This document shows, piece after piece, positions 3,995 through 16,465 of a stretch of DNA of 64,000 nt; the stretch's first letter is position 1; each line of letters opens with the position of its first letter. Source of the stretch: Victivallis vadensis (GTDB taxonomy: Bacteria > Verrucomicrobiota > Lentisphaeria > Victivallales > Victivallaceae); contig JBEBRW010000010.1 of the NCBI GenBank assembly GCA_040394635.1, positions 39,340 to 103,339 of the forward strand, in the 5' to 3' direction. Both the position numbers and the translations under genes were made by a program. The notes under the pieces were generated by a model. It saw nothing but the letters and a program-made list of their open reading frames with translations, was not told where the DNA came from and did not search any database.

Positions 3995-4408
3995 TTAATC
4001 CTGAATACTGGTGCCGACGCTGGAGATCCCGTCGGCGCCAACGGTCAGGTCCTGCCTGGTGGCCTGAATCGTCCTGGCAATGCCATCCCAGTTTTTCTGA
4101 TTGGGGAGCGTCGAGATTACGCCGCTGTCGGACTTGCCGGCAAATATCTTGGCGCCGGGCGTCGGGTCCTGCGTGGTCGCAATGCTGACCGATGCATACG
4201 CCATCCACCCGGACTGCCAGGCTATGACCGTTTTATTTTTCGTGCTCTCGCTCAGGGTCTTGACGACCGATTCGCTGGATTGAATCACCTGCTCAATGCT
4301 GCCGTCCTCGCGATAGATCGTGGTGGTGGACCGGGTCGGCGCAAAACATCCGGCGGTCATCAGCATTGCTCCAGCAGCAATGATTAATTTCTGCATATTT
4401 TTACTCAT
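3995..4408 (-). CDS. Small lipoprotein, the last gene of the tail operon
   Basis: Signal peptide with a lipobox (AMLMTAGC). The start overlaps the stop of the upstream fibre gene by 8 nt, which suggests translational coupling. Confidence 0.6.
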   Translation of the reverse strand: MSKNMQKLIIAAGAMLMTAGCFAPTRSTTTIYREDGSIEQVIQSSESVVKTLSESTKNKTVIAWQSGWMAYASVSIATTQDPTPGAKIFAGKSDSGVISTLPNQKNWDGIARTIQATRQDLTVGADGISSVGTSIQD

Positions 4409-5456
4409 CGGGGGCTCCCCAGCTGTAGAATGCGCTCACGGCTTCACCGGCCCAACTGGTGGAGCCGTCCGGATTGATGGTGACGGGACGAACCTCGATT
4501 GTGCCCGTAGTGGTATCGGCATCGCCCACAGTCACCGCGGGAACGCCGCCTGAACCGCCGGCAGCGGCCACTGCGCCGGGCTTCCAGGCTTGGGTAGCCG
4601 CCTCATAAACCAACGCCTGCCCATCGGATGCGTCGGACAAGCCGGACACGTCGGACAAGTCAGCCAGAGAGCTTGCACCGGCAGGGCCCCGGTCCCCTTT
4701 GTCGCCTTTGGGGCCGGGTTCTCCCGTATCGCCTTTTTCGCCCTGATCGCCTTTGGGGCCGGGTGCTCCGGTATCGCCTTTTTCCCCGGCCGGGCCGCCG
4801 GCTATCTTCAAGGGATCGGACCAGAGGCCGCCGATTTCACGGTTGCGAAGGCGGTACCAGCGGGCATTTTCGACACTCGCGGACCAATCGCCCGGCTCGG
4901 ACTCATTCGAAGAATATTGCAGCTCGAGACCGGCCTGCCAGAGCGATTCCACCCACGTGCGGTCCGCCCAATGCGCGGCCACCTCTTTCGGCTCCGTGCC
5001 GGAAACCGGGTCGATCGGCATAATTGCCTTGATGGGAAATTTACAATAATAAACCGCTTTGCCGCTGGTCTCCATGCCCCACAACTCAAACCAGGCGCCA
5101 ATGGATTCCCGCCCGTTGAGAGCAGCCAGGAAGTTAACCGTGTTGGCATTGATGACAAGCCCGACTTCGCCTTGTGCCAGGCCGGACGTATCGATATTTT
5201 CGCTCAATATCCGGCACATGGGTTCAGTGGTACAGTCATGGTCGCAATCGATCGCGGCCCGCCAGCTCGGCACTTCCGTCAGGTCAAGCGGCTTAAGCTG
5301 ACCGGACTCGGACGAACACAGCTGAATGGTCCATTCGGGCGAAGTGGCGAAGGCAATTTCCGGCTTCGTCAAACTACTCCCGCCAACGTTTCCCGGCTCC
5401 GAGTCACTGACGCGCCTGCGCAGGGTATTTGTGCTAACATTGTACTGATACAGCAT
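4401..5456 (-). CDS. Tail-fibre-like protein with a collagen-like G-X-Y segment
   Basis: A 351-aa ORF with 13 uninterrupted G-X-Y triplets (GPAGEKGDTGAPGPKGDQGEKGDTGEPGPKGDKGDRGPAG). It sits at the distal end of a tail gene string. Confidence 0.8.
   Translation of the reverse strand: MLYQYNVSTNTLRRRVSDSEPGNVGGSSLTKPEIAFATSPEWTIQLCSSESGQLKPLDLTEVPSWRAAIDCDHDCTTEPMCRILSENIDTSGLAQGEVGLVINANTVNFLAALNGRESIGAWFELWGMETSGKAVYYCKFPIKAIMPIDPVSGTEPKEVAAHWADRTWVESLWQAGLELQYSSNESEPGDWSASVENARWYRLRNREIGGLWSDPLKIAGGPAGEKGDTGAPGPKGDQGEKGDTGEPGPKGDKGDRGPAGASSLADLSDVSGLSDASDGQALVYEAATQAWKPGAVAAAGGSGGVPAVTVGDADTTTGTIEVRPVTINPDGSTSWAGEAVSAFYSWGAPDE
4677..4796 (-). repeat. Collagen-like G-X-Y triplet repeat (coding)
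   Basis: aa 221-260 of the 351-aa ORF. It contains the internal duplicate GEKGDTG(A/E)PGPKGD. Confidence 0.85.
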
Positions 5457-5459
5457 ATT

Positions 5460-6854
5460 TTATCCTTTTTTGTTTGCCGGGGTGTTTTTTGCTCCGGACA
5501 TTATTTGTTGATATTTGGCGAACAATTCTTCGCCGACCTGGCTGCGGAACCATGGCTCGTGCTCATGTTCCGATTTCTCAAATTTCTTGCGGTGTTCACC
5601 CGTGAAGCCGTTTCTGCTCAACCCTTTGATTCCGATCGGAATGGTTTCGCCGGGGTATTTCCTCATGGTTTTGTCGGCAAACTTGTGCCAGAGGTCGATG
5701 TCCACGAAGTTGCCTTCGCAGGAGCGGACAATGTCGATAAACCGGTCGCGATGCCGGAAATGGCAGCCGCTGAGCGCGGTAATGCACAGGTCCTCGCGTT
5801 GATTTACCAGCCGGTGTTTTTCCAGCGGCCAGTAATAAGTCGCGTTTTTCCAGCCGAAAAGACCGGTACTGCTCCGGGCCAGTTTGACCGTTTCGGCCAG
5901 GTATTCCGGCGGATAGAAATCATCGTCCTCCATGAAGATGATGATGCCGCCGTTCCATTCCTTTAGTCCGGCCAGAAGATTTTCGCGGTGCGTGAAACGC
6001 TTTTTCGGGTCATGTTCCCGGCGGATATATTTGCAGGCGCGGGCGGGACCGACCGGCTCTTTGCCGTCATCCACCACGACCCATTGGAAATTCTGGAAGG
6101 TCTGGTTATTGAGCATTTTTTCGTGCAGGGCAAACAGCGCCTGACGGTCGCGGGTCACCGTCAGGACCGTAACTTTCGCCTCGCGGGCCGCCAGTCCCGC
6201 CAACTCCAGCGCCCGGCTCAGAAGCGGATTGAAATCCGGCACATATTCCTGCTCCGTCATGATCTTCAGCCGCTTTTCACGGATCTCCGCCGCGAATTCG
6301 GGGTCCATGGCGAAACATTCCTGTTCCGCCTGGCTCAAATTGCCGATCGCCCAGGCCCGGTGAACCGGATATCCGTGCTGGGCCTCGATCATCAGGATAC
6401 CCGCATCCGCCAGATGCTTCAGCACGCATTGCGGACAGGCCGGACGCGGGAAGCTGAAGTCCCCCGTATCGGCGCTTTTCACCGCCGCCCGCGCCGGGCG
6501 CGCATACATCCCCAGTACCGGAAGCTGCGCCGCAGGGATTCCGGCGGCCTGTTCTTCCGTCAGCACCCGGGGCCATGTCTGGGCGGAAACCCGGTTCATG
6601 ACGTCCTCGCCGAACCGTGCTTTCAGCTTTTCCCGGCTCTCTTCCGTCCATTTGATCGAGGCCAGGAACTGAATCAAATGGGCAATGATGGTTTTCCGGT
6701 GGCAGCGGCTGCAGCTTTTCAGCTTTTCGTTCATCGCGTTTACCGGGGCCTCCAGATTGGGCAGCAGCTCGGTCAGGAACCCGATGTTTCCGGTGAAATC
6801 CTGGTGTGTTTTCTCATCCAGGTTCGACAAAAATTCTTTGGTTTGCAGAGACAT
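5460..6854 (-). CDS. Two-domain protein: an N-terminal Cys-pair domain fused to a GT-A (family-2-like) glycosyltransferase domain
   Basis: The C-terminal half has VTVLTVTRDR...FQWVVVDDG and a DXD-type FMEDDDFYP motif. The N-terminal half has CSRC and CPQC pairs. Confidence 0.75.
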   Translation of the reverse strand: MSLQTKEFLSNLDEKTHQDFTGNIGFLTELLPNLEAPVNAMNEKLKSCSRCHRKTIIAHLIQFLASIKWTEESREKLKARFGEDVMNRVSAQTWPRVLTEEQAAGIPAAQLPVLGMYARPARAAVKSADTGDFSFPRPACPQCVLKHLADAGILMIEAQHGYPVHRAWAIGNLSQAEQECFAMDPEFAAEIREKRLKIMTEQEYVPDFNPLLSRALELAGLAAREAKVTVLTVTRDRQALFALHEKMLNNQTFQNFQWVVVDDGKEPVGPARACKYIRREHDPKKRFTHRENLLAGLKEWNGGIIIFMEDDDFYPPEYLAETVKLARSSTGLFGWKNATYYWPLEKHRLVNQREDLCITALSGCHFRHRDRFIDIVRSCEGNFVDIDLWHKFADKTMRKYPGETIPIGIKGLSRNGFTGEHRKKFEKSEHEHEPWFRSQVGEELFAKYQQIMSGAKNTPANKKG

Positions 6855-6864
6855 ATATCCTCCT

Positions 6865-9609
6865 TTATTCGGTCTCGAATCGATTCATAGCGGTACCGCA
6901 GTCGAAATCATCCGACCAGCTGTCGACTTCGCCGTTATAGTTCCAATATTGATAGGGCGTGGAGTTGCAGATATACTGTCCGCACCCGACATTTCCCCAA
7001 TACCCCCTGCACTGTTGGATATGGTAGTCAAGTTCGTTTAGCGGAGCGAAGGGCTCATCCACAAAGTCACATAATTCCTGGCTGGTCGCAAATCCCATTA
7101 CCAGACTTCGGATGATGGTATTGGACGAGTCACTGCTTTCGCTGTAAAAACAGTCCCCATTGCTTCCCGATCCCGAATCCGAAGCGGAGCAGCTTTCGGT
7201 ATATGGGAAACCCCGTTCCGCTTCTTTTGGCGGAATCTGATAAAAGACATAAGCTACCTGGTGATACGTGCCGCCGTTTGCCGAGGAACCTTCGCACGAG
7301 CCCGAATAACTGACGGAATAATTCGATGAACTGTAATGATCAACCCGGATTGCATAATACAAACCCTGATAATAGGCGATCATAGAATTCAACCACTTCT
7401 GATACAGAGCATTGTTCTCGTACACCCAGAGATCAATTTCATGTACCGAATCGAGAAACGGCGTCAGCCGGCGGAACTCAAATTCATACCCGTCCGGTAA
7501 CTGAAGATATCCGAATAATTCATCATTTTCCGGATCAAGAAGAGTATTGGGATTTACCGGAATCGGCACATTCAAATGATTGTCATAGGAAATAACGAAC
7601 TGATTATTTTCAATTTTCACATTGAACACTCCGATCCCATACTGTTTGCCTCCTTTCCAGGCACTTTTGTCACATTCACGATAATCGGATGACCAGTTGC
7701 AATCATAATAATGAGACCAACCGTGAGGGGTCCAGTAAGCACCATATAGCCTGGTATATTTACCATTTATATCCGGAGTTCCGTCGCCATCGCCACCGTC
7801 AGAGCCGTCACCAGTTCCATCGCCGGTTCCATCACCAGTACCATCACCAGTACCATCACCAGTACCATCGCCAGTGCCATCACCAGTGCCATCGCCAGTA
7901 CCATCACCAGTTCCATCACCAGTTCCATCACCAGTGCCGTCACCAGTTCCATCGCCAGTGCCGTCACCAGTGCCGTCACCAGTGCCATCGCCAGTGCCAT
8001 CACCAGTACCATCACCAGTACCATCACCAGTACCATCACCAGTACCATCACCAGTACCATCGCCAGAGCCGTCACCAGTTCCGTCACCAGTTCCATCGCC
8101 AGAGCCGTCACCAGTTCCGTCACTGCTGCCATCACTAGAGCCATCGCTGGAGCCATCACTGGAGCCATCGCTACTGCCATCGCTGGAGCCATCACTGGAG
8201 CCATCGCTACTGCCATCACTGCTACCATCGCTACTGCCATCACTGCTACCATCGCTAGAGCCATCACTGCTACCATCGCTAGAGCCATCACTGCTGCCGT
8301 CACTGGAGCCATCGCTTGAGCTATCACTATTGCCATCATTGCTCAATCCGCCGTAGTAATCTCTCAACCACGAGTCCTTCACCGGAATATTCGTTTTTAA
8401 CCATGGACTGTATGCTCCCGTCTTGTCTTCCTCATCTTCCGTCTCCGGGGGCCTGCTGCCATCGGGCTCCTCTTCCACCACGACACACTCACAGTCATTG
8501 ATTTTCAACGTGAAGTCGGCATAGCGGGGCATATAAGACGGTTTCTCCTTGCTCGAATTTTTCATGATCAGACGATCATAGTAAAATCCCGAATAGATAA
8601 ATAAATTCCCCTGTTCTGCCGGAATCCAGTCTTTGACGCTGGTATTGTTGCGGACATACCACTCATCGTAAACCGCCTTGCGTCTTGCCAGTTCCACCTT
8701 GTACGCTTCTTTGTCTTCTTCCGTGGCCTTTTCGCCCGGCTTCGGCAATTTATCAAACACCGGCTCGGGCTCACAGCCAAAGTCTGATGTAGTGGAAAAA
8801 ACCAGTTTTCCACTGATCGGACCGTCAAACAAATCACACACATCCGCCGCCCGGATCAGGACCGACGTTTTCTGAATCACCGTCCCCAAATCCCCCCGCG
8901 GCAAAACGTCGATTATCCCCATAGTGTGGCCCTGAAGTACCCTGTTATGAAAATTCGGAAAACTGCTCTGGGTGGCCGCGCCGCTGTAAAACCGGGCCCA
9001 GGGCGGACGCTCCTTCACCGGAATATCCCGCATTTCGCGGCTCAACTCCATGAACTCCTCCGTCGCCATCGAGGTGAACGGACAAATTTCCGAACCGCGA
9101 AATGTCAGCTGCCGGAGCTGAACCCCGAGCTCGCTGTCCACCAGCTCCCCGAAGGTATTTGCGAGAAGCCCCAGATATACCACCGCATAACATGCATGCG
9201 TACTGAAGGTCCCGTGGTTTTTCGGCTTTCTGCTCGTGAAATAGAGCCTGTCCGGCAGCCCGATGAACCTGCGGCAGCCCATTTTGGCGTTATAACGCGG
9301 ATAGTATTTCCGCAGGTGGCTGAGCCACTCCGGAGAATCCACTTTGGCCAGCTGCAGATGATACGTGCCGTCGATATGATCCAGTGGCCAGCGCAGCTCC
9401 GGGTTGCCCCAGCCCAATTCGGCATGAAATATCCCAAGTTTATCGATGCCGGACAGCGTCACCGTGGCCGAAGCGTCCTCCGTGCAGAACATTTTGCCGC
9501 ACAACGTATTGTCCACGACCGTACCGCCTCCGCCGCCGCCGGAATCGGATAATTCGTCTTCCTCATTGCGGCACGGACATTTTTTCGCTTTCAATGGTAC
9601 CAGCCTCAT
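6865..9609 (-). CDS. Large Cys/Tyr/Trp-rich tail-associated protein with a central (SSDG)n(TGDG)n low-complexity linker
   Basis: A 914-aa ORF in the tail operon, 1 nt downstream of the preceding gene's stop. The repeat tract spans aa ~424-610. Confidence 0.8.
7780..8340 (-). repeat. 12-nt-period tandem repeat (coding) encoding tetrapeptide units
   Basis: About 561 nt. From tract length I estimate roughly 18 SSDG-type units (8121-8340) and 28 (T/S)GDG-type units (7780-8120). Five identical 12-mers (caccagtaccat) occupy 8001..8060. Elsewhere the units differ at synonymous positions. Confidence 0.95.
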
Positions 9610-9610
9610 A

Positions 9611-10141
9611 TCAGCAGCTCCTGAAAATGTAGTTGTAAATCATGCCGTATTGCTGCTGGTAAATCCGCAACGAATTCTCACCGGTTTCGACGATCGCCAG
9701 AAGAATGCTCAAACCCTCATCCCCCGATATCGAAAAATGACTCCGCACCACATATCCCTGGAAAACCGGCAAATCATCCGACATCGTGAACTCCGCGATA
9801 ATGAACGAAACCCCGCCGTTCAGCGAAAGCTGCTCCGGGTCGCACGACAGCACGGTGTCGTTGATCACCGCATTCCCGGCCGGCATCTCCATCCGTACAG
9901 CAGCGGCGAGCCGCCCGTCGACGACCGCCACTCCCGGCACCCCGTCTTCCGAACAATCCACCACCTTGAAATACCCCCCATACCCTCCGCCCCCACCGCC
10001 CCATCCTTCCTTCGCCAGGCTGATCCGCTGGCCGGAAGCCGACTGCTCGAGGATGATATTGCTCCCGCTCAAGGGCTTGAGACGCTCGATCTTCTTATTC
10101 AGAAATCGACAGGCACTCTGCCAGTCCAGAAAAGTACTCAT
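9611..10141 (-). CDS. Hypothetical tail/baseplate-associated protein (176 aa) with a Gly run
   Basis: I chose the internal ATG at 10141 (MSTFLDW...). It has an AGGAGAG RBS and avoids overlapping the upstream gene. The protein contains WGGGGGGYGGYF. Confidence 0.6.
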   Translation of the reverse strand: MSTFLDWQSACRFLNKKIERLKPLSGSNIILEQSASGQRISLAKEGWGGGGGGYGGYFKVVDCSEDGVPGVAVVDGRLAAAVRMEMPAGNAVINDTVLSCDPEQLSLNGGVSFIIAEFTMSDDLPVFQGYVVRSHFSISGDEGLSILLAIVETGENSLRIYQQQYGMIYNYIFRSC

Positions 10142-10149
10142 ATTCTCTC

Positions 10150-11610
10150 CTATGCATTGAAAAATGACGAGTTCCAGGTGTAACCGCGCGGCGCGTTTTC
10201 CCACTTGCGGATGATCCGGGTCCATACGTCTCCCTGGTAAACGCAGCGCTCCACCGATTGATGAACCTTGCGCCAGCTGCCGTTCAGGGAGCTCCTCCCC
10301 TGCAGCGTACCGTTGTGGATGATATCCCGGTCCAGCCAGTCTTTCAGCGAGCTCATGTTGGTATGGGGTTCACCGGACTTGTACGAGGTCAGGGTGATGG
10401 TGAAGCATTCCAGTGGATTTTCCACGAAATTCAGCGGCAGCTGCGAGTCGGAAATCAACGGGCACTGGCTCGAGCTGCTCCAATCCGGGTATTCGGAATA
10501 ACTGCCGCCATTATCGACCCAGCCGCATTCGACGGCGGAAAATTTATGGTAGGTCAGTTCCACGTTGCTTTCGGTACTGCCGTCGAAACTGTCCGGTATA
10601 TTCGAATAAGTCGGGTACAGGTAAGAAGGCTCGCGCGCCACCATGGTAATCTCCCATTCGCCCGGATTGCTGCGGCGGCTCTCCACGGAGGCGATGATAA
10701 AACCGCTCTCCGACCAGGATGCGGCATCGCTGCCAGTGGCCGGGCGAAACTCCTCCAGATCCTCGTCACGCACCCGCCAGCGCCCCGTGTAAGATACCTC
10801 GCGCACCATTTCGCCGGTGCCGAAAGTGATGTACTTCAAGCGGTCCGAGCGCCGGATATCGAGCAGCCGCATGCCGGAATACACCGCCGTCAAACTCACG
10901 TGATAACCGTACACTCCCACTGCCGAACAATTCCGAGACGACACCACGTAATTCTCGCCGGCCCACGCCGCCCCCTGCCCCACATCGTTTTCCTGCAGGA
11001 ACTCCTCGATTTTTTCCAGGCTCACCTGCCAGCGCGCCGTTTTGGTGCATTCCAGTTCGCCGGTTTTGCGTTCGCTCGGCAGTCCCAGCATCAGCGTGCT
11101 CATGTCGCGGATTTTCAGCCGGACGTCCCACTCGCCTTCGGGCTTCTGCGAAGCACTGATATTGTCGCAATAAAAATTCTCGCCGGCCCAGATGATGAGA
11201 TCCCCCACCTGCGGCAGCCACTCCTGCAAGGTCTCGTCGTTGATCAGAAACGACGCGTTGATTTCGTGTTCCAGATTGTTGTTGATCTGCCGCGAAAACC
11301 CGGTCATCAGCGATTCCAGGTTTTTCTTGCGCGCCGCAAACGTCACCGTGTACAAATTGCGCATCTGCCCGGAATCGGCCTTGATCGAGGTGACCACCCA
11401 GTCGCTGTCCTCGTGATAACTGCTGCTGTCGGTGTTGGGGACCTTCAGGGCGTCGCCGATCTGCCCGACCCACGCCTCAACCTCATCGCGAAACGCATCC
11501 CAACGCTCGAAATCGCCCGCTTCCGGCAGGATCTCCCAGACCAGCGTCCGGAAAATCTGGTTGGCGTTATCAACACTGAATCCAATGTTGTTTTTATGTG
11601 TCAACTGCAT
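10150..11610 (-). CDS. Tail hub / distal-tail-like protein (486 aa) made of 3-4 tandem ~80-aa modules
   Basis: It follows the chaperone genes and the short protein at the tape-measure position. Internal repeats share L(E/Q)E(F/W)...W(A/S)(G/E)(E/S)(N/G)(F/Y)...GEW(D/E)(V/I). Confidence 0.65.
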   Translation of the reverse strand: MQLTHKNNIGFSVDNANQIFRTLVWEILPEAGDFERWDAFRDEVEAWVGQIGDALKVPNTDSSSYHEDSDWVVTSIKADSGQMRNLYTVTFAARKKNLESLMTGFSRQINNNLEHEINASFLINDETLQEWLPQVGDLIIWAGENFYCDNISASQKPEGEWDVRLKIRDMSTLMLGLPSERKTGELECTKTARWQVSLEKIEEFLQENDVGQGAAWAGENYVVSSRNCSAVGVYGYHVSLTAVYSGMRLLDIRRSDRLKYITFGTGEMVREVSYTGRWRVRDEDLEEFRPATGSDAASWSESGFIIASVESRRSNPGEWEITMVAREPSYLYPTYSNIPDSFDGSTESNVELTYHKFSAVECGWVDNGGSYSEYPDWSSSSQCPLISDSQLPLNFVENPLECFTITLTSYKSGEPHTNMSSLKDWLDRDIIHNGTLQGRSSLNGSWRKVHQSVERCVYQGDVWTRIIRKWENAPRGYTWNSSFFNA

Positions 11611-11622
11611 ATTTTTTCCTCA

Positions 11623-12063
11623 TTAATCATTTATTTCCAACCCGTCCCGCTTCTGCTCGCCCAGACGCTCGGTGTTCTGCTCGACCGCCCGGATCAGGTC
11701 ATCCAGCCTCAGCTGCAGCTCGCGCAGGACCTCCGCCATCTGCTCATCGCTTCCGCCCCGTTCCTGCCGGTTTTCGTTATTGAAAATCCGGCGGCTCGAA
11801 TCGGTCCGGATATTCTGTTCGATTTCCGTGACGGCTCCATAGCTGATCTGCGAATTCATCTCTGCCGAAGCCGCCGGAGTTCCGCCGTAATACGCCGCGC
11901 CGTGCAGGACATTCGTGGTGGCGTGCCCCGCGGAATTTTCGCTGCCGGAATTCACCCCGCTGAGCTGACTGGCGCCGAGCAGCTCTTCGAACCGCCTCAG
12001 ATAATGCTCCAGCAGTTCAGGGACGTATCCGTTCCCTTCATATTCAAATGTCGGTGTACTCAT
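11623..12063 (-). CDS. Small protein (146 aa) at the position normally held by the tape-measure gene
   Basis: ATGA start/stop overlap with the upstream -1 frame ORF. The C-terminal part looks helical (DEQMAEVLRELQLRLDDLIRAVEQNTERLGEQ). Confidence 0.65.
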   Translation of the reverse strand: MSTPTFEYEGNGYVPELLEHYLRRFEELLGASQLSGVNSGSENSAGHATTNVLHGAAYYGGTPAASAEMNSQISYGAVTEIEQNIRTDSSRRIFNNENRQERGGSDEQMAEVLRELQLRLDDLIRAVEQNTERLGEQKRDGLEIND

Positions 12064-12467
12064 TTTTCAACCTTTTCACTGTTATTGATTATTTCCTGCG
12101 CGGTGTATTCCCGGTCGGTGCTGACCATGGTTTTGTCTTCATTGATACGGTGTGCCAGCTCCAGCGCCGCCCTGAGCTTCTCGCCCGACACCACACTGCC
12201 GGAGCTCCGCTGAAAAGCACTTCCGCGGCGGCGGCGCATTTCATCGAGCAGTGTTTCATTTTTCTGCAGCGATGTGCTTAACGCAATCACCGGGTATTCG
12301 AGCATGCTGTTTGCCTGCGCCCGGTCGGCGAGCGAAACCAGCGCCATGAAGATATTCAGCGGCTCACTCAGCAAACGTTCCAGCGTGTAACCGCCGAAAA
12401 CCTGCAGGACCCGGGCGGCGGCAAACTCAAAATCAGGCTCGCGGAATTCCCTGTTCAGTTTTTTTTT
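12060..12467 (-). CDS. -1 frame extension of the tail assembly chaperone (T part of a G/GT-like fusion)
   Basis: The -1 frame is open from the A9 run down to the stop at 12060. No ATG or good RBS of its own lies near the 5' end; the ORF track could only start it at a TTG at 12374. Confidence 0.55.
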   Translation of the reverse strand, partial: KKKLNREFREPDFEFAAARVLQVFGGYTLERLLSEPLNIFMALVSLADRAQANSMLEYPVIALSTSLQKNETLLDEMRRRRGSAFQRSSGSVVSGEKLRAALELAHRINEDKTMVSTDREYTAQEIINNSEKVEK

Positions 12468-12799
12468 GAGCCGTTTTCTTCAGCCTCGAAATCGCTGCCG
12501 AACGCCATATACATCCCCAGCTCAATCAGCCCGGCATAGCCGAGCCGGAACAAATCGCAGCTCAATCCTTCCGGGAAATACGGCGCCAGCAAATCACAGA
12601 TCCGCCGCCCGCCCCGTTCCATCAATCCGGTCCTGGACGCCAGGTCCAGATCCGCCGCGGCGCAATCCTGCTCCACCTCCCGGATCATCTCATTGAGCCT
12701 GTCGTAATCCAGGATCGAAAGCTTCCGCACTTCCACTTCTTCGCCGCCGCCGATCCGCAGCCGCACCGTCCGTTCCCCAAGCTTCGGAAAAAATCGCAT
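12455..12799 (-). CDS. Tail assembly chaperone (G-like, 114 aa)
   Basis: A small acidic protein immediately after the tube-like gene. It ends at the slippery run. Position and size match the lambda G paradigm. Confidence 0.7.
   Translation of the reverse strand: MRFFPKLGERTVRLRIGGGEEVEVRKLSILDYDRLNEMIREVEQDCAAADLDLASRTGLMERGGRRICDLLAPYFPEGLSCDLFRLGYAGLIELGMYMAFGSDFEAEENGSKKN
12461..12467 (-). other. Candidate -1 programmed ribosomal frameshift slippery heptamer A_AAA_AAA
   Basis: The minus strand reads TCA AAA AAA AAC TGA in frame 0, from a run of nine A (12459..12467). The heptamer is in X_XXY_YYZ register, two codons before the stop. Confidence 0.6.
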
Positions 12800-12812
12800 T
12801 TGCCGGCTCCTT

Positions 12813-13286
12813 TCAGTTGACGCTGATCTTTTTCATGATGACCCCGCTGCTGTCGGGATACGCCGTGAATTCAACCGCGAGCACATGCTCCTGGTTGCCG
12901 TCCAGCCGGTAGGTGCACGAGGGGCGCATTACCGCCGCCGGGAACTCATAACCGGCTTTGTCATCCGGGTTGACCGGCGTCAGGCGCAGCAGCCCGCTCC
13001 GGCTTTTCAGGTCCACGCCGATGAGGCCGAGATTGATTTCGCCTGTGTCGTCGAGCATGGTTTCGAAGGCTTTGTCGATCTCCTTCAGATCGGCGCTGAT
13101 GCTTACCTTCATGCCGGTCACAATCTCGCGCAATATTGCACCGCCGCTCTGGTCGCATTTGGATTCGTACACCTGCGGCTCGATCTTGATTTGCGGCGGA
13201 TTCTGGGTGCCCCCCAATACCTGATTTTTGAACGTCAGGGCGCATGAGCCGATTTTGAAATTCTGGACGTCATAACTGTTTGACAT
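12813..13286 (-). CDS. Major tail (tube)-like protein, 157 aa
   Basis: Only the C-terminal 157 aa of track ORF 12813..14183 are credible. The ATG at 13286 (MSNSYDVQNFKIG...) follows AAGGAG by 6 nt. The upstream part of the track ORF is antisense to the scaffold and capsid genes. It is the first gene of the leftward operon. Confidence 0.7.
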   Translation of the reverse strand: MSNSYDVQNFKIGSCALTFKNQVLGGTQNPPQIKIEPQVYESKCDQSGGAILREIVTGMKVSISADLKEIDKAFETMLDDTGEINLGLIGVDLKSRSGLLRLTPVNPDDKAGYEFPAAVMRPSCTYRLDGNQEHVLAVEFTAYPDSSGVIMKKISVN

Positions 13287-13327
13287 GTTGATCTCCTTTC
13301 GGGTTGTTGTCTGTGAACTAACTTTAC

Positions 13328-13376
13328 GAAAAAGGTCAACCTGACGCTCATTTCGTGCGTGAAGTTGACCTTTTTC
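13328..13376. promoter_or_regulatory. Perfect 13-bp inverted repeat (GAAAAAGGTCAAC-N23-GTTGACCTTTTTC) in the divergent head/tail control region
   Basis: Read directly from the sequence. Each arm carries an outward-facing TTGACC, a -35-like hexamer. Confidence 0.4.
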
Positions 13377-13418
13377 ACCAGTTGTAACGACAAACCCCCA
13401 ACCAAAAAGGAGACAGCA

Positions 13419-14036
13419 ATGGAACTGATGGAGATCATCAGAAAAGCCGCGGCCGGCGAAGCTCTGAATCAGGAAGAAAAAGACTTCCTGGCTTCGTACA
13501 AGCCGCAAGATGCCCCGAAAGGGCGGCTGGACAACGAAATAAAGCGGAACCGGGAACTGGCGGCACGCAATCAGGAGCTCACCGCCTCCATCGACGAGTT
13601 GACCGGCAAACTCGAAGATCTGGAATCCCAGTCCGCCCCGGAACCCGTCCGGCAGAGAAGAGAATACATGCGCGAAATCAACCAGCTGAAAAAGAATATC
13701 AAACTGCTGGCCGAAGAACGCGACGGTCACCGCGACGAACTGCAGAAAATCAAATTCCGCAGCCGCGTAACCGATATCGCCGGACATTATCAGTTCAACG
13801 ATCCGGAGTATCTCGAATATCTGCTGGGCAAGAATCAGCTCGATGCCGAAGACCCCGAACAGGTCAAGGACTTCATGGCCCGTATCCGCGAGGAAATGCC
13901 GCGCCACTTCAAGGTGCAGCTGCGTCCCGGCGGCGGCAGCAATCCCGGTCACGACCATCTCGCTGATTTCACCTCGGCCCAACAATCCGGCGACATCATG
14001 CAAATGCTTTGCCACGCCCCCGAACTCAAGAACTAA
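13419..14036 (+). CDS. Scaffolding-like coiled-coil protein
   Basis: The ATG at 13419 follows AAGGAGA. The protein (MELMEIIRKAAAGE...) is charged and heptad-like (NRELAARNQELTASIDELTGKLEDLESQ). It lies directly upstream of the capsid-like gene. Confidence 0.65.
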   Translation: MELMEIIRKAAAGEALNQEEKDFLASYKPQDAPKGRLDNEIKRNRELAARNQELTASIDELTGKLEDLESQSAPEPVRQRREYMREINQLKKNIKLLAEERDGHRDELQKIKFRSRVTDIAGHYQFNDPEYLEYLLGKNQLDAEDPEQVKDFMARIREEMPRHFKVQLRPGGGSNPGHDHLADFTSAQQSGDIMQMLCHAPELKN

Positions 14037-14051
14037 AAAAAGGAAAAAAAC

Positions 14052-15200
14052 ATGACTCTCTACACCTACAGCTTCCAGGAAAAACGCCGCGACCTCTCCG
14101 ACATCCTCTCCACCGTGATCAAGAATGAACCCCGCTTCATCTCCTGCTTCAAACGCGTGGGCGACGCCACCCAGCAGAAACACGAGTGGCTCGAGGATCA
14201 GATCGCCGGCCGTTCCGTGACCGTGCAGTCCGTCAGCACCGGCGTCATCACGCTCTCCGCTGCCGACGCCGCCAAGGTCAAGGTCGGCACGCTGCTGGTG
14301 ATCAAAGACGATTCGGCCCTGTTCCGCATCGCCCAGATCAACAGCGCCACCACCTTCACGCTGGCCAAAGTCGCGGCCAACGGCTCAACCACGGCCGCTC
14401 CGGCCGCAGGCGCCGTCATGAACATCGTCAGCACCCCGATCGCGGAAGGCAGCGCCACCGGCGAAGGCGAAGAAACCTCGCACCTCTCCGATACCGCGTA
14501 CAACTGCACCCAGATCTTCCGCAAAGACATCGTGATCACCGGCTCGGCCCTGGCCATCAGCGTGGCCGGCAATGTCGACAACCAGCTGAACCGCCAGACC
14601 AATTTCGCCCTCGGCGAACTCTCCCGCGACCTGAATCGCGTGGCGCTCTTCGGCCGCCGTACCGAAAACACGGTCGCGGCCCGCGGTGAAATCGGCGGTC
14701 TCTACTACTTCACCGAAAACAGCGCGCTGAAGATCAATGCCAACGGCTCGATCATCGACAGTTTCATGATCAACGACGGTGCCCAGGCCGTCCTCGGCGA
14801 AGGCGGTGTTCCCACCCAGATCCTCTGTTCGCCCGGACAGGCCCGCGTGCTCTCCAACGAGTACAAGAACCGCCTGCAGATCGTCCGCTCCGACGACGCC
14901 CGCGGCGCCTATGTCGCCGTCATCATCAATGAAAGCAACGGCAGCACCATGACCATCATGGCCGATCCGGACGTACCGGACACCGAAGCCTGGGTGAACG
15001 ACGTCAACGGTTTCGGACTCTCGAACCTGCACGGCCGCGCCATCAGCGACCAGGATTCCACCCCGAAGGGCTTCGACGGCGTCAAGCGCATGGCCCTCGG
15101 CGAGCTGACGCTGGAGTTCAAGAACGCCCACCAGCGCCTCTGCCGCATCTACGGCCTCAAGCCGAGTGCCCAGGCCCTGGCCGCGCTCCGCTCCGAATAA
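14052..15200 (+). CDS. Major capsid protein candidate (382 aa)
   Basis: The call rests on size, an Ala/Gly/Thr/Ser-rich composition, its position after a scaffold-like gene, and the strong hairpin right after its stop. The N-terminal KHEWLEDQ region recalls SU10/DUF5309-type capsid proteins (memory only). Confidence 0.7.
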   Translation: MTLYTYSFQEKRRDLSDILSTVIKNEPRFISCFKRVGDATQQKHEWLEDQIAGRSVTVQSVSTGVITLSAADAAKVKVGTLLVIKDDSALFRIAQINSATTFTLAKVAANGSTTAAPAAGAVMNIVSTPIAEGSATGEGEETSHLSDTAYNCTQIFRKDIVITGSALAISVAGNVDNQLNRQTNFALGELSRDLNRVALFGRRTENTVAARGEIGGLYYFTENSALKINANGSIIDSFMINDGAQAVLGEGGVPTQILCSPGQARVLSNEYKNRLQIVRSDDARGAYVAVIINESNGSTMTIMADPDVPDTEAWVNDVNGFGLSNLHGRAISDQDSTPKGFDGVKRMALGELTLEFKNAHQRLCRIYGLKPSAQALAALRSE

Positions 15201-15212
15201 GTTAACCCCCTT

Positions 15213-15240
15213 CCCCCTGCACCAGCAGGGGGATTTTTTT
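15213..15240 (+). terminator. Stem-loop with a U-tract immediately after the capsid gene
   Basis: CCCCCTGC-ACCA-GCAGGGGG followed by ATTTTTTT. Confidence 0.6.
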
Positions 15241-15256
15241 GATTTCAGGAGAAATT

Positions 15257-15625
15257 ATGATCACACTTGAAGATGCCAACAATTATTTCCAGAATCATCT
15301 GGACGGCGCCAAATGGCTGGCGCTGCCGGAGGAAACCCGCACCGCGGCGCTGCAGATGGCCGCTCGCGACGTCGCCGCCCGGCTGAACCGCGAATCGATC
15401 GATCCCGCCCGGATTTTTCAGCTCTACGCCGCCTGCGAACAGGCCGTTTTTCTGGCACTGGACGAAAGCGGCCGCCGCGAACTTTTCGTGGAAAGCGAGC
15501 AGATCGAGGGCCTCGGCAGCGTCAAATACGCCGCCCCGGCCGGCAACGAAACCGGGTGGTCGCCGCGCGCCCTCCGTTTCATCGAATGCGAGCTGAATTT
15601 ATTTCCGCGCATCGGCCGCGGCTGA
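15257..15625 (+). CDS. Head-tail adaptor / connector-like small protein (122 aa)
   Basis: The ATG at 15257 lies 6 nt after AGGAGA (the track starts at a TTG at 15239). The N-terminus ITLEDANNYF...W..L.EE.R.AAL..A resembles gp6/DnaT-like head-tail connector families (memory). Confidence 0.6.
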   Translation: MITLEDANNYFQNHLDGAKWLALPEETRTAALQMAARDVAARLNRESIDPARIFQLYAACEQAVFLALDESGRRELFVESEQIEGLGSVKYAAPAGNETGWSPRALRFIECELNLFPRIGRG

Positions 15626-15633
15626 ATTCTCCC

Positions 15634-15669
15634 AGTCGGACCCGTCGGACCTGTCGGACGAGTCCGACT
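15634..15669. repeat. 9-nt-period array: 3 x GTCGGAC then 1 x GTCCGAC (member of the intergenic element family)
   Basis: The units are agtcggacc cgtcggacc tgtcggacg agtccgact. The junction GTCGGAC-GA-GTCCGAC is a perfect palindrome. The array lies between convergent gene ends. Confidence 0.85.
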
Positions 15670-16465
15670 ATTTATTGCGCTTGAAATTCCAGAGGGCTTC
15701 GTCTTTGTTTCCGCCGGGCCAACCCAGCTTGTAGATATTCTTGACTTCAAGATCGCCGTAGCCCCAGCCCGAATGTGTATAGCCCAACGCCTCAGAAGTC
15801 ACGTGTCCGTCGATCCAACCGATATTGGCGCGTCCGTTGTGGCGGAAATGCATGGTCGGACTGGCTCCGCCCCATCCCTCATCCGTCTCGTCTTCCTTCA
15901 GGTAAATCGGCGCAAACATATCGTATTGCTCCACAAAGACCCCGCCGTTGATTCCGGCGTTATCGGCGAAAACCACCGTTTGCGACGGCTTCTTGATCTC
16001 CGAGGTTTTCGCCGGGAAACTCGCCGGCCACTCCATCCACTTGCTGCCGATCACCGCAGAATATCCGTAACCGCCGTTTCCGTTGTTGGTATCGGCGACA
16101 TCGCCGAAGACGCCCGTCGGACACCGCCGGATTCCCTCGCTGTTACCCAGGAAATCGTTCAATCCGCCTTCCGGTTTGATATCGCTGGTGCCGTAGGAGC
16201 CGCCGGTGGCTTTGCCGCACCAGATATCCGAGCCCACGGCCAGGGGAATGAAATATCCCTCGTAATTGTCGCAATAAAGATTCAGCGCCAGCGGCAGTTG
16301 TTTGAGGTTGTTGGTGCAGCTGATCATTTTGGCTTTTTCGCGGGCGGAATTCAGCGCGGGCAAGAGCATTCCGGCCAGGATGGCGATGATCGCGATCACT
16401 ACGAGGAGTTCAATGAGGGTGAAATCATTGACGGACAGACGGCAGGTACGGGTGTGCTTAAACAT
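15668..16465 (-). CDS. Prepilin-type N-terminal cleavage/methylation domain protein (DUF1559-like pseudopilin)
   Basis: The ATG at 16465 gives [38 protein letters not shown]. The C-terminal box is [16 protein letters not shown]. Confidence 0.85.

Follow-up and report, generated by a model that had tools for sequence, protein, structure and literature searches.

A phage-derived head and tail locus of Victivallis vadensis as a candidate component of a gene transfer agent-like particle system in the Lentisphaerota

A 64,000-nt stretch of the Victivallis vadensis genome (contig JBEBRW010000010.1; here called the window) contains, at positions 3995-15625, an island of phage-type genes in which a head-shell operon and a tail operon diverge from a common control region. 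We consider, with about even confidence, that this island is part of a selectively maintained, multi-locus particle system of phage derivation which resembles a gene transfer agent (GTA). This reading draws on a gene set that is intact and under purifying selection, on chromosomal settings that are shared within clades, on the presence of homologous head, tail, portal and terminase units at separate loci of related genomes, and on a promoter-type element found ahead of these units.

Gene content of the island

The original prediction, made from the letters of the window, described two divergent operons with a 132-bp gap, and the open reading frames (ORFs) lie where it had placed them. Ratios of nonsynonymous to synonymous substitution (dN/dS) in the following list were obtained by the NG86 method for 11 island genes, comparing the window with a V. 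vadensis metagenome-assembled genome (MAG). Loci of relatives are cited by L numbers, and the MAG contig is L002.

3995-4408, minus strand: putative lipoprotein, 137 amino acids (aa), last gene of the tail operon (lipoprotein-type signal; no Pfam or PHROG match)
4401-5456, minus strand: collagen-repeat tail-fibre-like protein, 351 aa (PF01391, E value 2e-6; phrog_366, phrog_819 and phrog_5073; dN/dS 0.20)
5460-6854, minus strand: 464-aa fusion protein with a GT2 domain at residues 248-327 (PF00535, E value 4.5e-9; dN/dS 0.13)
6865-9609, minus strand: 914-aa protein (p914) in tail/baseplate position (no family match; dN/dS 0.29)
9611-10141, minus strand: 176-aa protein (p176; no family match)
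10150-11610, minus strand: 486-aa protein (p486; no family match; dN/dS 0.06)
11623-12063, minus strand: 146-aa protein in the tape-measure slot, directly after the chaperones (placed by position only; dN/dS 0.43)
12060-12799, minus strand: tail-assembly chaperone pair of G/GT type (114-aa ORF at 12455-12799; 104-aa ORF at 12060-12374)
12813-13286, minus strand: tail tube (major tail) protein, 157 aa, first gene of the tail operon (phrog_2175, E value 3e-14; phrog_1280; dN/dS 0.04)
13287-13418, no strand: divergent control region of 132 bp between the tube and scaffold genes
13419-14036, plus strand: capsid scaffolding protein, 205 aa (PF06810, E value 8e-10; phrog_194; dN/dS 0.12)
14052-15200, plus strand: major capsid protein, 382 aa, of the SU10/DUF5309 family with HK97 fold (PF17236, SU10_MCP; dN/dS 0.11)
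15212-15233, plus strand: hairpin (9-bp stem with 7 GC pairs) and T-run (TTTTTTT tail) between the capsid and adaptor genes
15257-15625, plus strand: putative head-tail adaptor, 122 aa (position after the capsid gene)

In the rightward operon, the scaffold gene probably starts at 13419, which has an AGGAG ribosome-binding site, and not at 13359; the gene call in L002 is likewise 205 aa long. The capsid protein matches PF17236 with an E value of 1e-46 (160 bits; cut-off 24.1) and the major head protein family phrog_1328 with an E value of 6e-30. Its AlphaFold2 model is of low confidence (pLDDT 51) because the alignment did not hold enough diversity, and it is used here as corroboration only; the best Foldseek matches of this model are phage capsids, namely VP1 (E value 4e-7), followed by PhiTE and SU10. 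The phage-capsid fold, on which the original prediction had staked its reading of this gene, is thus indicated by family and structure searches alike. The hairpin behind the capsid gene likely acts as an attenuator that would set a high capsid-to-adaptor ratio. Of 86 loci compared, 67 have the adaptor gene behind the capsid gene, and true prophage relatives have it there as well; the C-terminal R-G of its product is invariant. Scaffold, capsid and hairpin were recognized as originally described, and the adaptor function is assigned by position. Profiles built from the alignments of adaptor, tube and capsid matched no sequence in the PDB.

The product of the first gene of the leftward operon aligns over 97% of its length with SSU5_012, at 30% identity; SSU5_012 has the place of the major tail protein, ahead of two small ORFs and then the tape measure gene. 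Paralogues of this tube protein, with 38-45% identity, follow the adaptor gene in Lentisphaerota zth2 (L014), L021 and L176. The 114-aa chaperone ORF ends in TCA AAA AAA AAC TGA, with the -1 frame open into the 104-aa ORF, and the slippery A_AAA_AAA at 12461-12467 of the minus strand, a canonical G/GT site, can be read directly in the sequence as had been noted before; a weak homologue of the chaperone lies beside the tube gene of prophage L024. The 146-aa protein has no detectable similarity to the 800-972-aa tape measures of related prophages and, if it is a tape measure, would imply a very short tail. An AlphaFold2 model of p486, built from 6 sequences (pLDDT 69), consists of repeated beta-beta-alpha modules, for which Foldseek found weak local matches only, to tube-fold proteins such as the T5 p142 tail terminator and SPP1 Dit, none of them significant; p486 is possibly a distal-tail or hub component. 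A word search returned 6 close homologues of p486, and an exhaustive search of 1.84 billion proteins returned 93 family representatives at 24-37% identity.

The p914 protein holds about 190 aa of (S/T)DG repeats (SDGS/GDGT) with a 12-nt period at approximately 7693-8342, diverges fast and is polymorphic in repeat length, the orthologues of relatives having 919, 799 and 746 aa. The GT2 glycosyltransferase near this repeat suggests a glycosylated linker. The fibre protein is 79% identical in L002 and 42-51% identical to a 432-aa ORF of the related genome UBA5247 (GCA_002408885.1). The lipoprotein gene begins 8 nt before the fibre gene ends, and the content of this last position varies, with a Laminin_G_3 protein in L002 and an unrelated 340-aa ORF in UBA5247. 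Of the features that characterize a siphovirus tail module, the tube, slippery site and fibre are present, and the tape-measure slot holds a 146-aa protein without detectable homology. The description of the operon as a complete-looking tail module stands for the tube, the chaperone slip site and the fibre, with the roles of the tape measure and of p486, p176 and p914 given by position only.

Intactness, selection and vertical signal

A scan of GTDB with one genome per species matched 134 stretches, of which 80 were inspected. In all 80 of these species loci the capsid gene reads through 360 or more of its 382 residues without an interruption, so that the frameshifts or nonsense mutations which had been proposed as the mark of plain decay number 0 among the capsid frames. 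Values of dN/dS relative to the V. vadensis MAG range from 0.04 to 0.43 for every island gene, as compared to 0.05-0.24 for flanking host genes, and from 0.11 to 0.29 relative to UBA5247. Such low values across the island exclude plain decay.

The comparison of synteny, proposed together with that of dN/dS, gave a clade-specific picture, in that flanking host genes are common within clades and different between clades. Among 20 pairs of loci that have 3 or more non-element flanking genes in common, the identity of the capsids is correlated with the mean identity of the flanks (r=0.86). The capsid is usually more conserved than the flank genes, and the triad locus (scaffold, capsid and the gene of about 120 aa) is kept across species with no more than 60-76% identity in the flanking proteins. 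In the capsid tree, the loci that also hold packaging genes form approximately one clade, and the loci that hold the triad only form several.

Distribution and architecture in relatives

All 80 inspected loci belong to the Lentisphaerota, and the closest match is that of the V. vadensis MAG (97%). Some 700 capsid homologues were found, with about 60-97% identity and near-constant length, and those that are named come from Victivallales, Victivallaceae or Lentisphaeria. The exact capsid sequence has a single record, a read-assembly contig of 1.5 kb, and for the exact SSF transporter and lipoprotein sequences of the window there is none. Among the 2.9 million viral contigs of IMG/VR there are only 11 related loci.

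Locus classes were drawn from tblastn searches and ORF clustering. Triad-only loci account for 56 of the 80, and for 27 of them at least 8 kb was searched on each side; several carry 1-3 tube paralogues after the adaptor gene. In zth2 the triad is located between recA/gyrB/glnA and GHMP-kinase genes, in OY761536.1 beside hydrogenase and secretin genes, and in UBA5247 between lpxK/rpsI/rplM and rpsM/rpsK/rpoA/rplQ. The tube paralogues, 2-3 per locus, stand next to the triad in L012 (OY761536.1), L014 and L021 with no chaperone or tape-measure genes; those of L012 lie at 11634-12527, 15330-15782 and 15796-16260, and one is fused to an extra C-terminal domain (297 aa).

The remaining class, head-and-packaging loci (24 of 80), has the order S24/LexA-type repressor (divergent), small terminase subunit (TerS), portal, scaffold, capsid, adaptor, c9 (a helix-turn-helix protein) and large terminase subunit (TerL). 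The identities of these genes are based on Pfam Terminase_6N/6C for TerL, phrog_145 for the portal (E value 6e-49), phrog_309 for TerS (E value 3e-37) and Peptidase_S24 for the repressor. The module, of about 7.5 kb, sits among genes for ETF, acyl-CoA dehydrogenase and an ABC transporter, fabA, lpxC and miaA, or alternatively among secretin, miaA and ftsA/ftsZ genes. On the annotated long contigs L087 and L088, no integrase, tail, lysis or replication genes occur within 10 kb of the module, and the annotated flanks of triad and head-module loci showed no integrase. Secretin genes also adjoin the capsid modules in L005 and L088.

Dispersed head, tail and packaging units

In UBA5247 the triad is located on DHTZ01000023 and a full tail module on DHTZ01000026. 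The latter is syntenic with the leftward operon of the window, containing the tube gene, ORFs of 116, 125, 155, 486, 180 and 799 aa, the GT2 fusion (460 aa) and the fibre, and its p486 orthologue is 71% identical; it is bounded by a GntR regulator and SIR2/NifU/Hsp33 genes. This separation indicates that the head and tail units are independent loci, which only V. vadensis has side by side. The triad and the tail module of UBA5247 each border on one of two paralogous cassettes (L092, 11616-16632; L089, 2543-8060), made up of three genes for a GntR/Peripla_BP_3 regulator, a protein of approximately 220-250 aa and a LamG/CBM protein of 1039-1237 aa. These cassettes are a possible substrate for the recombination that would have joined the modules in V. 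vadensis.

Packaging loci were sought by a metagenome scan with the portal profile. In 14 loci a portal gene occurs without scaffold, capsid or TerL in its flanks, and 8 of these are pairs of a portal and c43, a connector-like protein of about 100 aa. In L040 the portal-c43 pair is located 8 kb from the triad, and in L176 c43 follows the adaptor instead. In L119 and L121 the portal gene is directly followed by a p176-like gene (30% identity), then by a p486-like gene (34% over 494 aa) and TerL (by Pfam), all between glmM and hisD/hisC. The P0118 capsid locus, as seen on another contig, has scaffold, capsid, adaptor, c43 and tube genes among FKBP, UvrD and Kup genes. Because the L121 contig agrees in source and exactly in length with the longest contig that carries the P0118 capsid, we infer that one organism very probably holds both the P0118 capsid locus and the L121 portal-tail-TerL locus, more than 10 kb apart on one 343,254-bp JGI contig. 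A complete set of portal, TerL, head and tail genes is present in relatives, very probably in the organism of L121/L176, and in head-and-packaging modules. Stand-alone portal genes are free of stops in 79 of 80 loci. The family search for TerL gave more than 7,900 matches, and none of the 120 listed bore an assembly name that would connect it to a triad-only genome. The original suggestion of a domesticated particle with its remaining genes elsewhere thus gains from the separate loci and intact portals of relatives, and falls short in that no portal or terminase gene of V. vadensis was located, the search having covered the 64-kb window.

Control region and shared promoter element

The control region contains a palindrome with 20-nt arms at 13328-13347 and 13357-13376 that are 90% complementary. 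Each strand thereby carries a single GTTGACCTTTT element, the minus strand at 13330-13340 and the plus strand at 13364-13374. The degenerate form GTTGACCWTTT has 2 matches in the 64 kb, both in the control region, where 0.04 would be expected. The shorter GTTGAC[CA] precedes the separated head triad and tail module of UBA5247, and is found at -20 to -130 ahead of about 40 scaffold-capsid operons (background about 0.19 per kb, both strands). Among 18 stand-alone portal genes that were inspected, 12 have it upstream. The L131 and L143 portal loci further share a downstream TTGTAAC with the window element. A scan for generic sigma-70 promoters missed those of the control region, the -10 regions being non-canonical. 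What is claimed here for the element is confined to the palindromic 11-mer pair and the positional enrichment.

Further sequences recur near these operons. A leader, GGTCACTCACGTAAAAAAGCTGTG (with GATCACT variants), lies approximately 20-45 nt past GTTGACA and before the scaffold gene in L011, L012, L013, L015 and L017, and leaders of this type were also found in L047, L022 and L016 and before TerS in L018. Another GC-rich hairpin leader, CAGGCGTTCGATGG..GGGTCGCATCCGGCGGCGCCTG, is present in L028, L035, L038 and L048. These leaders may be regulatory RNAs of the 5' untranslated region or operator sites. Two copies of a 15-bp palindrome, TAATACTTGGTATTA, stand directly before the stand-alone TerL gene in L119 and L121 (approximately 15205-15250) and are operator-like, and a tandem array of 8-mers (GTTCCCCT, GTTCTAAT) lies just before the portal promoter of L121, at approximately 9840-9930.

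Chromosomal setting

The island is flanked by an SSF transporter gene on one side and by genes for a prepilin-type pseudopilin and a DinG-type helicase on the other, so that Pfam supports the ordinary chromosomal neighbours seen by the first reading, and its GC content (0.48-0.62) overlaps that of the flanks, as had been judged by eye. The left flank inside the window comprises 4 kb only, with an AT-rich left border; the remaining 48 kb to the right encodes AsnB, AspRS, argininosuccinate lyase, a Ser/Thr kinase, DegT, ROK and similar proteins, along with unknowns. The contig of the V. vadensis MAG has the same right-hand boundaries as the window. When 20 large ORFs outside the island were compared to Pfam they proved to be housekeeping or unknown, and 6 of the unknowns had 0 matches in PHROGs. 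The window contains no tRNA gene, integrase or replication module, there are no att-like flanking repeats around the island, and an Rfam scan of positions 1-22000 detected no known RNA. PADLOC found no known defence family among the window genes; its match of the scaffold to LmuB (E value 8e-4) was discounted as similarity at the level of coiled coils.

Proposed particle system

In the proposed scheme, the head-shell operon would supply the scaffold, the SU10-type capsid, the attenuating hairpin and the adaptor-like protein, and the short-tail operon would supply the tube, the G/GT chaperones made by -1 frameshifting, the protein of the tape-measure slot, baseplate, fibre and glycosyltransferase. 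With twin identical promoter elements facing outward, heads and tails would be made together. Portal, TerS, c43 and TerL, encoded in relatives around the capsid gene or at separate sites with the same GTTGAC[CA] element, would complete the particle; in V. vadensis the portal and terminase genes would lie elsewhere in the genome, and joint assembly of the particle and a DNA cargo would follow. The most likely product would be small tailed particles made from dispersed host genes, a gene-transfer-agent-like 'viriform'. As is typical of GTAs, the phage genes reside in the chromosome of the window organism and of its relatives without integrase, replication module or att site, one clade having an S24-type repressor, and they are intact and under purifying selection.

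We put forward more tentatively a wider proposal, namely that the Lentisphaerota (Victivallales) carry an order-wide, vertically inherited particle system in separately promoted mini-units which are co-regulated by a common promoter/operator, and that this would be a sixth independent GTA type, the most fragmented known and the first in the Planctomycetes-Verrucomicrobia-Chlamydiae (PVC) superphylum. The mini-units, with about a dozen genes in all and in what is an equally provisional scheme, would be the shell triad, portal-c43, TerL, TerS and the tail module, reshuffled among lineages.

Several results weigh against the proposed system. No homologue of portal, TerL, TerS, MuF, c43 or S24 repressor was found in the 64-kb window by tblastn with queries from relatives; together with the empty Pfam and PHROG scans, this bears out the statement of the original prediction that portal, terminase, integrase and repressor are missing here. 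No lysis genes were seen either. No Pfam, PHROG or PDB match was found for the adaptor, and 25 adaptor sequences compared with Pfam at E values up to 1 gave scattered noise only, for which reason its role rests on position; family and structure searches likewise gave no confident function for the 146-, 486-, 176- and 914-aa proteins. GTTGACM occurs in the window about as often as chance predicts (16 matches, 11.5 expected), and GTTGACA is also the generic sigma-70 -35 consensus, so that our claim extends to a strong type of promoter which the units have in common, and which is possibly an operator, but stops short of a proven regulon. The capsids of prophage-like loci are about 64-70% identical to that of the window, and these loci nest inside the capsid tree and not outside it, the tree being a neighbour-joining, midpoint-rooted one that was not reconciled with the species tree; prophages that nest in the tree and co-occur with chromosomal copies make repeated capture or phage exchange possible. 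Finally, the portal gene of L126 has a TAG (10709-10711) in place of the invariant Trp of HWFED, the sole stop among 80 portal loci, and it is this locus, with the order portal, ORF of about 95 aa and TerL, whose tetranucleotide usage (r=0.957) makes it the packaging locus closest to the window, similar to UBA5247, a likeness that is only suggestive. BLASTN comparison of the metagenome portal loci with the window gave no overlap linking a portal locus to this genome.

Alternative explanations

An unlikely alternative, in our estimate, is that two independent exaptations without a portal are combined here, the triad forming a closed shell, whether compartment or secreted, and the tail operon a short, non-contractile, tailocin-like structure, with no packaging of DNA in this lineage. 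Such structures would agree with the absence of portal and terminase from the window, with the separate head and tail loci of UBA5247, with the 56 of 80 loci that are triad-only locally (for 27 of which the search reached 8 kb or more to either side), with the nonsense codon in the L126 portal, and with the p486 family being much less widespread and less conserved than the capsid. They do not readily explain why the capsid gene stays linked to an adaptor-like gene and, in several clades, to tube paralogues and c43, none having an obvious role in a closed shell, nor why the head and tail operons here have a palindromic twin promoter in common and carry the same element when apart. Stand-alone portals that are intact in 79 of 80 loci, TerL genes kept next to p486/p176 homologues, and the failure to see cargo-like or lysis genes also speak against this alternative.

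We likewise think it improbable that the island is a satellite-like or interference element directed against related temperate phages and fixed in the chromosome, with head genes, and in V. vadensis also tail genes, that would hijack or poison assembly in superinfecting or co-resident phages of this family. The flanks that are annotated lack integrase, replication genes and att sites, which are characteristic of capsid-forming phage-inducible chromosomal islands (cf-PICIs) and are missing from the window and from the flanks of L087 and L088; positions are conserved, the locus co-diverges with host genes, no defence family was matched, and V. vadensis, having a tail operon of its own, would not need the tails of a helper. 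Set against this, relatives have a head-and-packaging module that equals a cf-PICI in its morphogenetic genes and includes no tails, its S24-type repressor suggests induction by DNA damage, and related full prophages with capsids 66-70% identical co-occur with chromosomal loci (L024 with L040, L027 with L051).

That the island might be an unusually well-preserved prophage remnant was the second reading offered originally, and such a remnant, devoid of function, now appears very improbable. Portal, terminase, integrase and lysis genes are indeed missing locally and the close relatives include real prophages, but the capsid is intact in 80 of 80 loci, dN/dS is well below 1 in the 11 genes tested, the same locus recurs across species with flanks 60-76% identical, the tail module is intact after its separation, and each unit has a dedicated promoter element; the claim is contradicted by these data. 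Hardly credible is an ordinary complete prophage with its other half outside the window or split off by the assembly, for which the 4-kb left flank and AT-rich left border leave some room, since the SSF transporter on the left, 48 kb of housekeeping genes on the right, the host genes that bound and separate the modules of UBA5247, the equal right-hand boundaries in the MAG and the absence of att or tRNA all disagree with a complete or recently defective prophage.

Comparison with known systems

A particle system built from dispersed host genes finds its nearest parallel in RcGTA of the Alphaproteobacteria, which is alike in having chromosomal head and tail genes without integration, replication or lysogeny modules, clade-wide conservation, purifying selection, several loci and a siphovirus-type tail with G/GT chaperones. 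The capsids, however, point to an independent origin, as RcGTA has its own capsid with a prohead protease, whereas the island has an SU10/DUF5309 capsid with a separate scaffold. The system described here is also more fragmented and variable, in that triad, portal-c43, TerL and tail genes may each stand alone; it has an S24 repressor in one clade, its host phylum is the Lentisphaerota, and it is known from genes alone.

The cf-PICIs make their own capsids and borrow only tails. The module of relatives, with TerS, portal, scaffold, capsid, adaptor, TerL and repressor and without tails, is similar to theirs, but the island differs in lacking integrase, att and replication genes, in fixed positions and co-divergence, and in that the window lacks portal and terminase and has a tail operon. 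F-type (flexible, non-contractile) tailocins are comparable as stand-alone tail operons of siphovirus type, the tail operon of UBA5247 being separate from any head genes. The tail operon of the island differs in having no lysis/regulatory cassette, in the very small size of the protein at the tape-measure position, and in its head-to-head pairing with a capsid operon that has the same promoter element. Encapsulins share an HK97-fold shell without portal or terminase nearby; PF17236 is not an encapsulin family, though, and here scaffold and adaptor-like genes are always adjacent, tube genes often so, and no cargo gene was recognized. Capsids of this family in the Lentisphaerota are 23-28% identical to those of Bacillus (phBC6A51-like) and Brevibacillus phages, and the Pfam family is named for Escherichia phage SU10.

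In Lentisphaerota WC36 and zth2, growth on laminarin was reported to be accompanied by the release, without lysis, of filamentous and 'hexagonal' phage-like particles (PMC11361711). In zth2 a stand-alone TerL gene, JYG24_06675, apart from a myovirus-type prophage, was induced about 16-fold (PMC11361711), and type II secretion/secretin and VgrG genes were induced by laminarin as well (PMC11361711, Supplementary file 2). L014, at about 1.773-1.777 Mb of the zth2 chromosome (CP071032), belongs to the triad-only class and has two paralogues of the tube gene. The system proposed here may underlie these non-lytic hexagonal particles of zth2 and WC36; this weighs as a lead and not as a result, the published study having made no link between the particles and the triad genes.

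GTA domestications are, to our knowledge, independent of each other but few, and we know of none described for the PVC superphylum. Within the paper library searched, Victivallis or Lentisphaerae in combination with gene transfer agent, prophage or capsid led to no such element, nor did Verrucomicrobia with gene transfer agent. If the system is GTA-like, gene exchange among hard-to-culture bacteria of gut, rumen and sediment, including V. vadensis of the human gut, would have a vehicle, and a capsid that is intact in every inspected species at 60-97% identity would denote a strongly selected function. The variable splitting of units would then constitute a natural series for the study of host control over domesticated viral genes, and the lysis-free particle release published for Lentisphaerota could be read anew. 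Should it not be a GTA, a shell without portal, accompanied by a mini-tail of its own locus, would be no common exaptation either.

Prophage relatives

Full prophage-like loci with the same capsid family are represented by L024, L027 and L047 and, from IMG/VR, by L178, L179 and L181. Like the chromosomal modules, these siphophages of the Lentisphaerota have TerS, portal, scaffold, capsid, adaptor, tube and chaperone genes; in contrast to the island, which has no packaging genes, they are contiguous and carry MuF-like and Neck1 genes and tape measures of 800-972 aa. Prophage L024 is found in the same assembly as L040, and L027 in the same assembly as L051. The possibility, raised at the outset, that the island is a rearranged piece of an ordinary complete prophage is countered by L024, L027 and L047, which exist as distinct elements co-occurring with chromosomal modules and do not represent the island locus in a longer form.

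A further ten loci (L136, L138, L144, L147, L154, L155, L157, L161, L164 and L168) are prophage-like, with homologous portal, scaffold and adaptor genes and mostly MuF-like genes. The gene that occupies the capsid position in these ten is undetectably related to that of the other loci, which looks like capsid replacement within a conserved head module.

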